Notes: generated by a model not told the origin, from the sequence alone. DNA of 64,000 nucleotides from Acidobacteriota bacterium (GCA_963664705.1 OY761556.1:4832001-4896000), one strand, 5' to 3'; counted from the stretch's first letter, positions 52,213 through 62,500 are shown. A program made the numbers and translations.

Positions 52213-53640
52213 ATGAGCGCGGAAGAATTTCCCAATACTTCAAGACCCGCCCGCATCCTGCTTGTAAAAAGCTGCTGCAATGATCCTGCCTACAAGGTAG
52301 TCAATCATCCTCTGGGTCTGATGAGCATCGCCTCCTACCTGAGGGAAAAATACGGTTGCCAGGCCAAGATCATCGACCTTCGGCTGGATGGCAATAGCCG
52401 CAGCGGACTGGAATCCGAGATTCGTCTTTATGCCCCTGATATTGTCGGCATCAGCGCTTTGACCTTTGAATCCAACGCCATTCCCTGGATCGCCGAAAGC
52501 GCTAAGCGCGTAAATGCAAAAACGCCTGTGCTGTTGGGAGGCCCGCATGCCACCGCGTATCCGGAGCAGGCCGCTCAAATTCCCGGTATTGACTATGTCA
52601 TCGTCGGCGAGGGCGAGGTCGCGGCCGGCAGATTGATCGAACGCATTCTGAATCAGCAGGATCTCTCTGGTTTGAAAGGGATCGCCTATCAGCGCGGGAA
52701 CCAGGTTATTACGACCGTCAGGGAAGATCCGATCGAAGATATCAATCTCCTACCGTCACCCGCCTATGATCTGATTCCCATTGAGCAATACGGGGAATAC
52801 AGCCGAATGAGTCGTACAGGATCAGGCAAATTCATGAGCCTCTTTTCCTCGCGCGGTTGCCCTTACCAGTGCATCTATTGCCACAATATTTTTGGAAAGG
52901 CATTCCGCTTTCGCAGTGCCGAAAACCTTTTTAACGAAATCAAACACCTTTACACCACCTATCAGATCCGCGATTTCGAGATTCTGGATGACATCTTCAA
53001 TCTGGACCGGGAACGGCTGATCGAGTTCTGTGACCGTATCATCTCGAGCGGCATCAAGGTTACCCTGGCCTTCCCGAATGGCGTACGCGGCGACATCCTG
53101 GACGAGGACCAGCTGTCCAAGCTTCGGCAGGCGGGAACAATATTCATGGCCTTCGCCATTGAAACCGGATCGCCGCGCATGCAGAAACTCATCAAGAAAA
53201 ATATCCAGCTCGAGAAAATAAAGAAGAATATAGAGATCGCACACGCTCTCAAAATTCATCCCCATGGATTCTTCATGATCGGCTTCCCCGGCGAGACGCT
53301 GGAGGAAATGCAGATGACCGTCCGGTTCATGGTCGCTTCCAAACTTCATACCATCGCGCTATTTGTGGTTATGCCCTTTGAAGGGACCGAACTGGGAAGA
53401 ATCACGAAGGAAATGGGCAAAGCCCCGGTCAGCGATTTTTCGATGAGCTATCATTCAGAGAGCTTTGTCAACCTGACCAGTGTGCCCGCCAGACAGGTGA
53501 ACCGCCTGCGGCTCCACGCGCTGATGAAGTTTTATCTGAATCCATTCCGGCTGTTTGTGCTGGTGAGAGATTTCCCGAACAAGCGGGAACTAGGTAAGCT
53601 CGTGATGGTTTTTTTCCGACGCCTGCGTTGGCGGGGTTGA
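52213..53640 (+). CDS. B12-binding domain radical SAM protein
   Basis: HPLGLMSIAS, GGPHAT, GEGE, SRGCPYQCIYC. Confidence 0.92.
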   Translation: MSAEEFPNTSRPARILLVKSCCNDPAYKVVNHPLGLMSIASYLREKYGCQAKIIDLRLDGNSRSGLESEIRLYAPDIVGISALTFESNAIPWIAESAKRVNAKTPVLLGGPHATAYPEQAAQIPGIDYVIVGEGEVAAGRLIERILNQQDLSGLKGIAYQRGNQVITTVREDPIEDINLLPSPAYDLIPIEQYGEYSRMSRTGSGKFMSLFSSRGCPYQCIYCHNIFGKAFRFRSAENLFNEIKHLYTTYQIRDFEILDDIFNLDRERLIEFCDRIISSGIKVTLAFPNGVRGDILDEDQLSKLRQAGTIFMAFAIETGSPRMQKLIKKNIQLEKIKKNIEIAHALKIHPHGFFMIGFPGETLEEMQMTVRFMVASKLHTIALFVVMPFEGTELGRITKEMGKAPVSDFSMSYHSESFVNLTSVPARQVNRLRLHALMKFYLNPFRLFVLVRDFPNKRELGKLVMVFFRRLRWRG

Positions 53641-53687
53641 AAAATCGAGGGGCGGCAGGCAATCCTCCTCGGGTTTCGCGGTAGCTC

Positions 53688-55133
53688 ATGCGCATTCTTT
53701 TTATCTGCAAAGATATCAACTTGAGCCAGCCCATGGGAATTCTCTCCCTCTCGGCAGTTTTGCGCGCGCAAGGCCACCACACTGATCTGGCGCTGGCTGA
53801 GCGCAGGGGATTCCTGGCGCGAGTGAGCGATTTCAGGCCCGACGTCCTTGCCTACTCCGTGACCACGGGGTTTCACAACTACTACCTTGATCTCAACCGC
53901 CGCCTGAAAACACATCTGGCTGGAGAGGGCCGAAATCCTCTGACGCTGATGGGCGGTCCACATGTCACGTTCTTCCCCGAAATAGTGGAGGCGGAAGGGG
54001 TAGACGCCGTTTGCCGAGGCGAGGGAGAAGATGCGATCGTGGACTTTGTCCATGCGCTGGAGCGGGGCAGCGACTACACGCAAATTGCCAATTTCTGGGT
54101 CAAGACTGGCAGCGGAATAGTCCGGAACGATGTGCGCCCGCTCATAGAGGACCTCGACCGCCTGCCATTTCCCGACCGCGATCTGTTGTTCAGTGTGGAC
54201 CGCTTCACACGCGAATCTCCGGTGAAGGTCTTTTTCCCGAACCGCGGCTGTCCATACCTTTGCACATACTGTTTCAATCATAAGTACAACGCACTTTATT
54301 GCGGCAAAGGAAATATCGTCCGCTACCGATCGGTGGAAAGTGTTCTCGCCGAAATCAAGGAGGTCCGTGCCAGGTGGCCCCTAAAATACCTCTTCTTCCT
54401 TTCGGATAATTTCATCCTGAACAAAGAGTGGGTCGGCGAATTTGCGGCGCGATACCGCGCGGAAATCGGGCTGCCTTTTACCTGCAACGTGCGGGCGAAC
54501 CTTGTGGATGAGAAGGTGGTTTCCGATCTGCGGAAGGCCGGGTGTGTCTCCGTTCTTTTCGGTGTCGAATCGGGAGATGAGCACCTGCGCAACGATGTCC
54601 TGAAGCGGCAGATGTCTGACGACGTCCTGCTTCGCGCCGGCCGTTTGCTGCGCGCGGCCAATATCCGACTTTACACGCAGAACATATTGGCGCTGCCGGG
54701 CGAGGACTTTCGCCAGGCCCTTTCTACCCTAAAGCTGAACCAGAGTTTGCGGCCCGCCTATGCCTGGGCTTCGATTTTTGCGCCGTATCCTTCAAGCGAG
54801 TTGACGGAATACGCCATTGACAACGGGCACTTCGAGGGCGACTCCAACAGGATCAACCCGTCTTTCCATAGCAGGTCGGTCTTGAAGTTCTCCAGTCGAA
54901 AAGAGCGGCGGATGTTCACAAACCTGCACCGGCTTTTTGGCATTTTTGTTGAATGGCCGTCTCTGGGCAGGAATGCCCGACTGTTCTGCGCCTTGCCGCT
55001 GACGCCCGTTTACTCGGTTTTATACAAATTATGGTATGGCTATACCAATCGATACCGGATCTATCCGTACCCGGCATCACCGCGGGAGTCCATGGTCGGG
55101 CTCATTCGTTTTCTCAGGAAAGACCGATCATGA
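53688..55133 (+). CDS. B12-binding domain radical SAM protein
   Basis: PMGILSLSA, GGPHVT, GEGE, RGCPYLCTYC. Confidence 0.92.
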   Translation: MRILFICKDINLSQPMGILSLSAVLRAQGHHTDLALAERRGFLARVSDFRPDVLAYSVTTGFHNYYLDLNRRLKTHLAGEGRNPLTLMGGPHVTFFPEIVEAEGVDAVCRGEGEDAIVDFVHALERGSDYTQIANFWVKTGSGIVRNDVRPLIEDLDRLPFPDRDLLFSVDRFTRESPVKVFFPNRGCPYLCTYCFNHKYNALYCGKGNIVRYRSVESVLAEIKEVRARWPLKYLFFLSDNFILNKEWVGEFAARYRAEIGLPFTCNVRANLVDEKVVSDLRKAGCVSVLFGVESGDEHLRNDVLKRQMSDDVLLRAGRLLRAANIRLYTQNILALPGEDFRQALSTLKLNQSLRPAYAWASIFAPYPSSELTEYAIDNGHFEGDSNRINPSFHSRSVLKFSSRKERRMFTNLHRLFGIFVEWPSLGRNARLFCALPLTPVYSVLYKLWYGYTNRYRIYPYPASPRESMVGLIRFLRKDRS

Positions 55134-55187
55134 TTGTCGCTCATGCTGCAAGCTCTAAACCATGTTGATTCACCGAAAGCAATACGC

Positions 55188-60664: not shown

Positions 60665-60695
60665 GAATTATTGTCGAACTCGAGATTGGAGCTTT

Positions 60696-61766
60696 ATGTC
60701 TACAGCCATTGTTACGGGATCCGCGGGATTAGTTGGAAGTGAGGCGGTCCGGTTTCTTCACGACCAGGGAATGGATGTGATCGGGATCGACAATAATCTG
60801 CGCGAATACTTTTTTGGACCTGACGGGTCCACGCGTTGGCAGCAGGAGCAGTTGACCGGATGCCTGAACCGCTATCGGCACTTCGATCTGGATATCCGCG
60901 ATCAGGAATCGATGTTCCGGCTGATCCGGGAGCACCAGCCTTCACTGCTGATCCATTGTGCCGCACAGCCCAGTCACGATTGGTCCGCCAGGGAACCGAT
61001 CACGGACTTTTCGGTCAATGCCTGTGGAACCGTGGTGCTGCTGGAAGCCCTGCGGCGCTTCGCACCGGAAGCCGTGTTTATCTTCGTATCAACAAACAAA
61101 GTGTACGGGGATACGCCCAATCATCTGCCGCTGGTCGAGCAGAATACGAGATGGGAGCTGGATTCAAGCCATCCCTATGCCGCCCGCGGTATCGATGAAT
61201 CCATGGGAATCGATCAGACAAAGCATAGCCTGATGGGGGCAAGCAAAGTAGGCGCGGATGTGATGACGCAGGAATATGGCCGATATTTCGGGTTGAAGAC
61301 AGGAGTTTTTCGGGGAGGTTGCCTGACCGGTCCCGCTCATTCCGGAGTCGAGCTCCATGGGTTCCTGGCCTACCTGGTAAAATGCGCGGTACTTGAGCGG
61401 CCGTATGTTGTCTATGGATACAAAGGCAAGCAGGTGCGCGATAACATTCATTCGGCCGATCTGGTCTCAGCCTTCTGGCAATTCTACTGCCGGCCCCGCC
61501 CCGGAGAGGTTTACAATATCGGCGGATCAAGACACAGTAACTGCTCTATTATTGAAGCTATCAACAGAATCGAAGCCTTGTCCGGGTGCCGCGTCGAATA
61601 TTCCGTGGTGGATCAGGCGCGTTCGGGCGATCATATCTGGTGGATATCGGATGTAAGCAAGTTTATGCGCGACTATCCCTCCTGGAAATATGCCTACAAC
61701 CTGGATGACATCCTGCAGGAAATCATTGCGGCGGTGAAGGCACGAACCGGGAGTCGAAGCCTGTGA
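60696..61766 (+). CDS. NAD-dependent epimerase/dehydratase (RfbE-like subfamily)
   Basis: [33 protein letters not shown]. Confidence 0.85.
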
Positions 61767-62500
61767 AACTCTCGGTATTGATACCCGCGCATAATGAATC
61801 CTCATGCATCGCCTCGACAGTCCAGTCGCTCTTTGCCGAGCTGGACCGCCAGGCGATTGATCACGAAATACTTGTCATCAACGATCACTCGACCGATCAG
61901 ACCGAGGCGGTGCTTCAGAGTCTGATCCCTTCAATCCCCACCCTGCGCTACCTGAACAACTCGCGGGGAAAGGGGCTTGGGCTGGCCGTTCGCCTTGGAC
62001 TGGAGACTTTTGCGGGAGACGCGGTCGCACTATTCATGGCCGATGGGTCAGACGATCCCGTCGATCTGGTCCGCTTCTTCAGGAAAATGCAATCCGATGA
62101 CACGGACTGCGTATTCGGAACCAGGTTTTCCAGGGAGTCCAGAGTCGTCGGATACCCGCTGGTGAAACTTGTTTTGAATCGGTGCGGAAACAACCTCATA
62201 CGACTTTTGTTCGGCCTGCGTTACAACGACATCACAAACGCATTCAAGCTGTATCGGAACTATGTGATCCAGGGCTTGCAGCCGATCATTAGCCATCACT
62301 ACAACCTGACGGTTGAATTACCCCTGAAGGCTATTGTTCGCGGATACAGCTACTCGGTCGTCCCCAACTGCTGGACAGAACGGCGGCACGGGCTTTCCAA
62401 GCTGAGAATAAAGGAAATGGGATCGCGGTATATGTTCATCATACTCTACTGCTTTATCGAAAAATGGCTTTCAAAGGGGGATTATTACCGCAAGAACTGA
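61763..62500 (+). CDS. GT2 glycosyltransferase (polyprenol-phosphate glycosyltransferase/DPM1-like)
   Basis: [34 protein letters not shown] start overlaps the previous stop. Confidence 0.88.

Follow-up and report, generated by a model that had tools for sequence, protein, structure and literature searches.

A B12-type radical SAM-containing cassette of uncultured Acidobacteriota as a candidate lipid-linked envelope glycosylation pathway

Three-component periplasmic glycosylation systems, such as GtrB/GtrA/Gtr*, ArnC/ArnEF/ArnT and the Citrobacter GT136 system, are described in the accessible part of PMC11127046 as combining a polyprenyl-phosphate sugar synthase with GT-C transferases and, for diversification of the sugar, SDR epimerases as auxiliary enzymes. 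The eight-gene cassette presented here shares these elements and is a variant of this already known overall design; it differs, however, in the absence of a flippase, in the possession of two GT-Cs, one of which carries TPRs, and in the addition of two B12-type radical SAM enzymes (rSAM1 and rSAM2), a methyltransferase and an SDR devoid of the catalytic tyrosine. The radical SAM enzymes AprD4, HpnJ, MoeK5 and GenK, whose substrates contain sugars, have a B12-binding-like domain and a radical SAM core in common with rSAM1 and rSAM2 (PMC9204698 and PMC12931638, each in part), yet they are distant from both, with all matches below every cut-off, and belong to antibiotic or hopanoid pathways rather than to an envelope GT-C operon. 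AprD4 has an SDR partner, AprD3, and the substrate of MoeK5 is a lipid-linked sugar. The TPR GT-C recalls the animal O-mannosyltransferases TMTC1-4, in which a GT-C membrane domain is likewise followed by TPRs; full-length prokaryotic TMTC homologues exist but are uncharacterised according to the accessible sections of a 2021 paper (PMC7801869). A description of the cassette or of the tyrosine-less SDR family was not found in listings of the open-access literature; the examples in figure S12 of PMC11127046 could bear on the novelty of the cassette.

The window, a stretch of 64,000 nucleotides from an Acidobacteriota genome (GCA_963664705.1 OY761556.1:4832001-4896000), holds eight intact open frames between 52213 and 62500, all on the + strand. 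The gaps between them, 47, 0, 1, -4, 53, 31 and -4 bp in gene order, bear out the tight or overlapping arrangement noted in the original prediction, and from this spacing we infer that the genes are co-transcribed. A scan for promoters and terminators performed no better than chance, with 3 promoter sites found against 8.0 expected in shuffles, and the same holds for a weak sigma-70-like match upstream of rSAM1 (52090..52119, + strand). Pfam matches agree with the family labels first proposed for the two B12 radical SAM enzymes, the methyltransferase, the GT39-like GT-C and the DPM1-like GT2, and reveal no Wzx, Wzy or ABC exporter among the eight genes, as predicted.

What does this gene content suggest about the function of the cassette? 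In the pathway we envisage, a nucleotide sugar would probably be turned into an unusual one by the soluble SDRs, SDR1 as an NAD-dependent redox enzyme and SDR2 by binding the nucleotide sugar for a non-canonical, His/Asp-based step, and GT2 would load the product onto undecaprenyl phosphate. Membrane-facing radical SAM enzymes and the methyltransferase would then tailor the sugar while on the lipid, with rSAM1 adding a C-methyl group from methylcobalamin, the class I methyltransferase adding an O-methyl group, and rSAM2 providing optional extra tailoring. After a flippase encoded elsewhere has carried the donor across the membrane, the TPR GT-C may start a glycan on a protein in the periplasm, probably an exported one, which the second GT-C may extend unless it serves a second acceptor. 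That a lipid-linked GT-C pathway is encoded we consider very probable; for the complete scheme, with transfer probably to proteins, we have a mild preference.

The donor side of this pathway rests on GT2 (61763..62500; 245 aa), a predicted polyprenyl-phosphate glycosyltransferase of the DPM1/GtrB-like type with a Pfam match to Glycos_transf_2. Among solved structures, dolichol-phosphate mannose synthase is its closest relative (E 1.4e-12), with GtrB and ArnC matched as well, and its metal-binding motif is a variant, in which Met92 replaces the first Asp in 25/25 aligned sequences. Together with the fold of the TPR GT-C and the PMT_2 match of the second GT-C, this homology supports the proposed route from a polyprenyl-phosphate-sugar donor to two GT-C enzymes. 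The further claim that the pathway is self-contained is not supported as stated: Pfam detects no flippase among the eight genes and the source genome (G000) has one GtrA gene, 2.6 Mb from the cassette, and 15 PMT_2 matches; in another genome, G014, GtrA was not found.

The two SDRs (SDR1, 59594..60664; SDR2, 60696..61766), both matching the Pfam Epimerase family, had been called RfbE-like, a label that holds for the fold but not for the active site. CDP-tyvelose 2-epimerase, RfbE/TyvE (PDB 1ORR, 9RL0), is the best sequence match of both and the best fold match of the SDR2 model (TM 0.88, rmsd 1.9); its activity is abolished by loss of the Asn125/Lys126 pair, as stated in the accessible part of PMC13098431. 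SDR1 keeps the catalytic Thr/Tyr/Lys triad (T121/Y171/K175) without this pair, in whose place stand Ser122 and Arg123 (position 122 being Ser in 33/37 and Asn in 4/37 sequences, and position 123 Arg in 37/37). SDR2, in contrast, has the pair, within T133/N134/K135, along with invariant H94, D95, H215 and H221, but carries Met180, and Phe in 45/45 homologues, at the position aligned to Tyr164 of TyvE. The RfbE active site is thus incomplete in each, and neither SDR alone should catalyse the TyvE reaction. An obligate SDR1-SDR2 heteromer as a general rule was rejected, as an SDR1 orthologue was not found in 10/10 genomes, of unstated completeness, that were chosen for a solo SDR2 and gave hits only at the level of SDR2-type matches (~180 bits); likewise, SDR2 occurs with neither SDR1 nor GT2 in 23/43 well-flanked loci. 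Structure prediction lends weak support to an SDR1-SDR2 complex, on which we do not rely: the score is 0.40, with 0.00 for the best control, at least 82% of contacts agree between runs and the partner pLDDT is at least 82. The mark passed is reached by 116/157 solved and 2/215 mismatched pairs, although at scores of 0.60 or less these comprise just 18 solved pairs and both mismatches, and since a solved TyvE tetramer exists, the pass may reflect mere likeness.

Both rSAM1 (52213..53640; 475 aa; intact cluster cysteines C216/C220/C223) and rSAM2 (53688..55133; cysteines C188/C192/C195) match the Pfam B12-binding and Radical_SAM families above cut-off. They are only 25% identical and fall into separate clades in a quick tree, by which a tandem duplication was rejected. 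The B12-binding domain, the Cx3Cx2C motif and the Gly-Gly and Gly-Glu features of base-off cobalamin binding, as described in the accessible part of PMC9204698, are invariant in 16/16 and 21/21 relatives, respectively. Neither enzyme reaches the cut-off of any named curated family (best 159/750 and 124/578 bits). Below cut-off, the top family matches of rSAM1 are the methylases ApyD and Sden_1168, and its chance of being a methylase appears even. A TokK-type Trp after the cysteine loop is absent from both enzymes, with Asn in its place, which is still compatible with methylases of a non-TokK type.

The alternative that survives best keeps the pathway but exchanges its radical chemistry: one or both enzymes would dehydrate or ring-contract the sugar in the manner of AprD4 or HpnJ, with an SDR as partner reductase, yielding a deoxy or carbocyclic sugar. 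Among solved structures, the non-methylating AprD4 comes closest to both (E 1.6e-20 and 9.5e-17), and HpnJ, BchE and AprD4 are the top NCBIfam matches of rSAM2. Moreover, radical SAM enzymes are found beside the SDR pair in L079, a Deferribacterales locus where a GT2-B12-rSAM fusion precedes SDR1-SDR2, and in Azospirillum brasilense, where the pair is followed by a different radical SAM gene; AprD4-like enzymes belong to the same network despite the absence of cobalamin binding (PMC12931638, in part). All scores, however, fall far short of cut-off (HpnJ, 124 vs 578 bits), the top family matches of rSAM1 are methylases, and both enzymes keep the base-off features described in PMC9204698, which the non-methylase OxsB has likewise. 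We regard such chemistry as unlikely and retain methylation by rSAM1 as the working assignment.

On the transfer side, the frame of the TPR GT-C (55188..57140) is open from TTG 55134, but ATG 55188 is probably the start, because Met19 is nearly invariant across 60 homologues; the gap to rSAM2 then becomes 54 bp. Pfam detects the C-terminal TPRs, and PMT_2 only weakly (20 bits, cut-off 26). The predicted model (pLDDT 91.9; aligned region residues ~37-452) adopts a GT-C fold, as anticipated, with Pmt2 (Z 20.6, rmsd 4.2, 348 aligned) ahead of STT3 (Z 20.3), Pmt4 (Z 20.1), ArnT (Z 18.1) and ALG12 (Z 17.9). Residues D71/D72, K219, R380 and Y383 are kept in 58-59/59 homologues and parallel the first-loop acidic pair and the conserved Lys, Arg and Tyr of TMTC (GT105), a correspondence read from the motifs in the accessible part of PMC7801869 without alignment to TMTC sequences. 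In the Atlas, the membrane domain scores 0.92 against a eukaryotic TMTC cluster. Of 7997 scored candidates, 5243 match this domain. The original description as TMTC-like thus applies to architecture and predicted fold only: the TMTC Pfam model, PF08409 (TMTC_DUF1736), matches neither this protein nor 10 related N-terminal domains. Unlike animal TMTC1-4, the enzyme is bacterial and its donor is probably not dolichol-P-mannose. The second GT-C (57840..59540; 566 aa), of the PMT_2 / GT39- or ArnT-like type, matches PMT_2 above cut-off (62 bits) and has a conserved acidic pair, D50/D51, in its first loop. PDB sequence searches with both GT-C domains returned nothing useful, sequence or profile searches with the second GT-C found no match including solved ArnT, and for the TPR GT-C, Foldseek and the full-length profile gave TPR proteins only.

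We lean slightly towards a protein as the acceptor. TPR arrays usually bind proteins, and relatives of the TPR GT-C lie between type IV pilin-like genes at four loci of one kin group (L128, L135, L161 and L162). Transfer from the same donor pathway to a lipid or glycan, be it lipid A, LPS core or O-chain, or a glycolipid, as by ArnT or Gtr, would instead fit the source label 'ArnT-like' on many homologues of the second GT-C, the Z-scores of ArnT and ALG12 close to that of PMT, and locus L115, which keeps all cassette genes except the TPR GT-C. As the cassette is also free of aminoarabinose genes, besides Wzx and Wzy, we think a lipid or glycan acceptor rather unlikely, a shade more so than the alternative radical chemistry.

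Scored on how basic, aromatic and hydrophobic their last 60 residues are, rSAM1, rSAM2, the methyltransferase (57142..57843; 233 aa; class I, SAM-dependent) and GT2 fall within the top 0.2-0.6% of 1779 background ORFs; the score was chosen after the sequences were seen, and the background includes shadow ORFs. Basic-aromatic tails are missing from SDR1 and SDR2, which rank at 17-22% on the same score, and are present in relatives from non-GT-C settings. The rSAM tails suggest membrane binding, and with the HpnJ match of rSAM2 and two squalene-hopene cyclases in the source genome they would also suit enzymes that modify hopanoids or other membrane lipids and merely share an operon with the glycosylation genes. 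This is decidedly improbable, as rSAM1 is still found with GT-C genes after rearrangement; a hopanoid role in particular is unlikely, since a cyclase occurs in 5/5 genomes with and 5/5 without the cassette and the nearest cyclase gene is ~200 kb off. In the five genomes searched, no protein exceeds the HpnJ cut-off (TIGR03471), so that the hopanoid pathway, named beforehand as a match that would speak against the glycosylation reading, is not favoured.

Orthologues of rSAM1 (68-77%) are present in 6/30 genomes of the genus, these six being kin and hence not independent, and GT2 orthologues in 5/6 of them, the sixth (G002) being cut by a contig end, and in 0/24 of the others. G042 and G001 share the order TPR GT-C, methyltransferase, GT-C, rSAM1, rSAM1, and in G042 SDR1-SDR2-GT2 is divergent from this block, so that rSAM1 has GT-C and methyltransferase genes as neighbours in two distinct arrangements. 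As indirect evidence, 14/27 rSAM1-homologue records on contigs of at least 10 kb have a close GT-C homologue on an identically sized contig (control 0/34). Within the genus, a link between rSAM1 and the genes for the GT-Cs, the methyltransferase and GT2 is thus supported, but a fixed eight-gene unit is not: no rSAM2 was found in G001 or G042, the TPR GT-C is missing from L115, and L116 retains SDR2 as a broken remnant. In this one genus of uncultured Acidobacteriota the cassette comes and goes mostly as a whole, and it is modular; rSAM1 is the radical SAM enzyme that stays with it and likely belongs to the lipid-linked GT-C pathway, and rSAM2 is an optional add-on.

Outside the genus, SDR1-SDR2-GT2 is widespread, also next to methyltransferase relatives in other phyla, but mostly without radical SAM genes, which are present at 5/80 SDR2 loci; a B12-type enzyme occurs at 1/13 well-flanked SDR1-SDR2-GT2 loci (L022, carrying the same cassette), and sister-genus GT2s have no radical SAM gene within 20 kb. 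A GT-C Pfam match is found in 1/15 membrane neighbours of SDR1-SDR2-GT2 loci. Sugar genes lie within two genes of rSAM2 in 7/8 scanned metagenomic groups and adjoin 3/13 of its other Acidobacteriota relatives (1.5-kb flanks; 41/51 candidate ORFs scanned). A recent mosaic of independent modules (SDR1-SDR2-GT2-methyltransferase, GT-C genes and radical SAM genes) without a shared pathway, to which the occurrence of every module alone elsewhere and the 10-15 PMT_2 matches per genome of the genus, with or without cassette, might point, is very improbable, given that presence across the 30 genomes is close to all or none and that linkage persists in two gene orders. An outer-membrane beta-barrel gene lies within ~6 kb of the cassette in G000, G014 and G042; as G000 has 37 matches to this family, it is a lead only to a possible acceptor.

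As a candidate lipid-linked glycosylation pathway, the cassette bears on the role of the prokaryotic TMTC-like GT-C/TPR enzymes, on the products of many B12-type radical SAM enzymes at envelope-glycan loci, and on the mechanism of a conserved nucleotide-sugar SDR family that has lost its catalytic tyrosine; if true, the tailoring of a lipid-linked sugar by radical enzymes would amount to new envelope chemistry. The most far-reaching reading joins all parts: TMTC-type O-glycosylation would install a new branched sugar, made by a split-function SDR pair and C-methylated by cobalamin-radical chemistry on undecaprenyl phosphate, on outer-membrane or exported proteins chosen by the TPR domain, and the His/Asp chemistry of the tyrosine-less SDR would be one not described for its enzyme class. 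We consider this reading doubtful. The sugar chemistry is directly testable, because the SDR pair and a radical SAM gene are present in the cultured Azospirillum brasilense.

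What can be discerned about the role of the eight genes at 52213-62500? All of them are intact and co-oriented on the + strand, with intergenic gaps of -4 to 53 bp and a GC content of 0.49-0.57, near the 0.53 of the genome. Pfam and NCBIfam searches largely bear out the families of the original prediction: two B12-binding radical SAM proteins (rSAM1 and rSAM2), a TPR membrane protein, a class I methyltransferase, a PMT_2 GT-C, two extended SDRs (SDR1 and SDR2) and a GT2. The predicted lack of Wzx, Wzy and an ABC exporter holds as well, there being no exporter, polymerase or flippase among the eight genes. 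The closest SDR2 relatives among the best 80 of 589 loci, 78-80% identical, are labelled as Acidobacteriota, and the TPR protein has a near relative with the same label. The cassette is a probable variant of the three-component glycosylation system described in PMC11127046: it would work alike, but adds TMTC-like and radical enzymes. A literature search found no description of this gene combination, and the members of the cassette do not belong to RfbE, HpnJ or, by Pfam, TMTC.

For all chemical steps we infer the following scheme, towards which we lean slightly. SDR1 and SDR2 would reshape an NDP-hexose, which GT2 would load onto undecaprenyl phosphate; the lipid-linked sugar would be C- and O-methylated at the cytoplasmic face and flipped by a carrier encoded elsewhere, and the GT-Cs would transfer it, probably to exported proteins. 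One GtrA gene is present in the genome.

Within the genus, the cassette is largely one unit. rSAM1 orthologues occur in six of the 30 genomes compared; five of these six also have a GT2 orthologue, and the remaining 24 genomes have none. rSAM2 orthologues are found in four genomes. A DNA search returned cassette pieces from the same six genomes, which are kin and in several cases fragmented, plus one weak paralogue. The synteny of the cassette is complete in the related genome G014, with all eight genes in the same order at 61-80% identity and additional rSAM1 copies, but it is rearranged in G042 and G001 and incomplete at two further loci. Both rearranged genomes have the order TPR GT-C, methyltransferase, GT-C, rSAM1, rSAM1, with the SDR1-SDR2-GT2 block divergent from these genes in G042 and on a separate contig in G001. 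The metagenomic locus L115 is missing the TPR GT-C, and at L116:10800-11240 only a frameshifted C-terminal remnant of SDR2 is left, with SDR1 and GT2 intact. The cassette is real and modular. In an indirect comparison over more assemblies, 14 of 27 rSAM1 homologues are paired with a GT-C homologue on contigs of equal size, against 0 of 34 controls. In G014, L097:4603-9937 has two almost identical copies of rSAM1 with two unrelated ORFs between them, which points to a recent duplication.

The predicted conservation of the radical SAM genes with the sugar genes is largely seen within the genus, but rarely outside it: among the best 80 of 589 SDR2 loci, SDR1 is present in 36, GT2 in 28, both in 24, a methyltransferase in 7 and any B12-type radical SAM gene in 5. 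Across 401 genomes drawn from the phylum, no match outside the genus exceeds 39% identity for rSAM1 or 41% for rSAM2. Given the few SDR2 loci with a B12-type radical SAM gene and these low identities, SDR1-SDR2-GT2, with or without the methyltransferase, is a widespread core, to which rSAM1 and rSAM2 are a lineage-level addition.

The original label 'RfbE-like' suits the SDRs by fold, but neither is RfbE itself. CDP-tyvelose 2-epimerase is the nearest relative of both (the SDR2 model has a TM of 0.88), but neither keeps the full active site. For the epimerase, PMC13098431 gives a triad of Thr124/Tyr164/Lys168, with Asn125 and Lys126 essential. All 37 SDR1 orthologues aligned have Tyr171 and Lys175; in the numbering of that paper, Arg stands for Lys126 in 37/37 and Ser for Asn125 in 33/37. 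The SDR2 alignment, comprising 45 of the best 80 of 589 loci, keeps Thr/Asn/Lys throughout, but has Phe at the position of the catalytic Tyr in all 45 homologues, and Met in the window; H94, D95, H215 and H221 are invariant. Compared with RfbE/TyvE, SDR2 therefore lacks Tyr164 of the triad and SDR1 the Asn125/Lys126 pair, and these complementary losses suggest, at the level of sequence, that labour is divided between the two. As SDR2 often occurs alone, it probably has a chemistry of its own. The prediction of an SDR1-SDR2 heterodimer is weak (score 0.40 versus 0.00 for the control).

Among solved structures, GT2 is closest to dolichol-phosphate mannose synthase, and GtrB and ArnC are matched too; in 25/25 sequences of its family, the metal-binding motif has Met in place of its first Asp. 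The TPR GT-C, gene 3 of the cassette, yields a confident predicted structure (pLDDT 91.9). Its membrane portion can be superposed on Pmt2 (Z 20.6), STT3 (20.3), Pmt4 (20.1), AglB (19.3) and ArnT (18.1), with values too similar for the fold to tell which acceptor is used. Four residues, D71, K219, R380 and Y383, are the same in all 59 homologues, and D72 in 58 of them; by our reading, these match residues highlighted for TMTCs in PMC7801869. The label 'TMTC-like' is supported by architecture and by the Atlas, where its membrane domain scores 0.92 against a eukaryotic TMTC cluster, but not by Pfam, where PF08409 finds no match: the two are alike in build, yet gene 3 fails the TMTC family test. 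In the second GT-C, D50/D51 are conserved, and a sequence search matched no solved structure.

The cluster cysteines of rSAM1 and rSAM2 are intact, and both proteins show base-off cobalamin features. They fall into separate clades in a quick tree, neither reaches a family cut-off, and each has AprD4 as its nearest solved relative. Metagenomic rSAM2 relatives form 13 groups, eight with usable flanks, of which seven have a sugar gene (GT2, GT-C, GT4, sugar dehydratase or sugar aminotransferase) at most two genes away. Counting against a sugar role, only 3/13 Acidobacteriota rSAM2 relatives have such a gene nearby, and rSAM1 relatives at 32-36% are mostly found beside SPASM radical SAM proteins. 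Loci L169-L196 hold a conserved B12-radical SAM family, 32-36% identical to rSAM1 and often flanked by two SPASM radical SAM genes and seen in numerous genomes from the same class. Two independent pairings of the SDR pair with a radical SAM gene are found elsewhere. In one Deferribacterales genome, a single-ORF fusion of a GT2 and a B12-binding radical SAM domain lies directly upstream of SDR1-SDR2 (L079:6436-9003); on an Azospirillum brasilense plasmid (L206:6871-10868, NZ_CP032350.1), SDR1 and SDR2 orthologues, 51% and 63% identical to those of the cassette, and a radical SAM gene that scores HpnJ-like lie among annotated glycosyltransferases. The latter locus, which offers a cultured test system, suggests that the SDRs act at the stage of the nucleotide sugar. 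At L127, L128, L135, L161 and L162, a conserved operon of a SPASM radical SAM gene, two transketolase/E1-like subunits, a GT2, an rSAM2 relative, a GT9 and a radical SAM gene lies next to TPR GT-Cs and type IV pilin-like genes; it is a candidate locus for pilin glycosylation with a branched sugar.

The last 60 residues of rSAM1, rSAM2, the methyltransferase and GT2, but not those of the SDRs, reach the top 0.6% when scored for their content of basic, aromatic and hydrophobic residues. By this post hoc score, 17/17 and 22/22 members of the radical SAM families exceed the 95th percentile, versus 1/46 and 0/38 SDRs (16/17 and 19/22 versus 7/46 and 0/38 with a 40-residue window). The tail sequences point to membrane-facing enzymes, compatible with a lipid-linked substrate and also with lipid substrates. 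The genus makes hopanoids, but the possibility raised originally, that the cluster matches a known hopanoid modification pathway, is not borne out: squalene-hopene cyclase is present in 10/10 genomes tested, with or without the cassette, its gene is unlinked to the cassette, and no protein passes the HpnJ cut-off in the five genomes searched.

A second GT-C/GT2/SDR/B12-radical SAM cluster, its radical SAM protein also with a basic-aromatic tail, lies elsewhere in the genome (G000:C1:3294474-3306516), ~17 kb from the cyclase gene. Upstream of the cassette, a PAS-domain hybrid histidine kinase (49245-52028, + strand) was not seen adjoining it in the relatives mapped. Downstream, the region covered by window 63000-64000 and G000:C1:4895000-4906614 (L205) holds a convergent outer-membrane beta-barrel of 1413 aa, a 295-aa protein without a Pfam match, then a GT-C with PMT_2 and TPR domains and a carbamoyltransferase gene; comparable genes adjoin the cassette in G014, G001, G007 and G042. 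In the final codons of GT2 begins a tandem repeat (62479-62889; three units of 136 bp, 94% matches), whose core of ~75 bp is found again at 12 further genomic sites (75-84% identity) and so resembles a dispersed repeat of the REP/MITE type.
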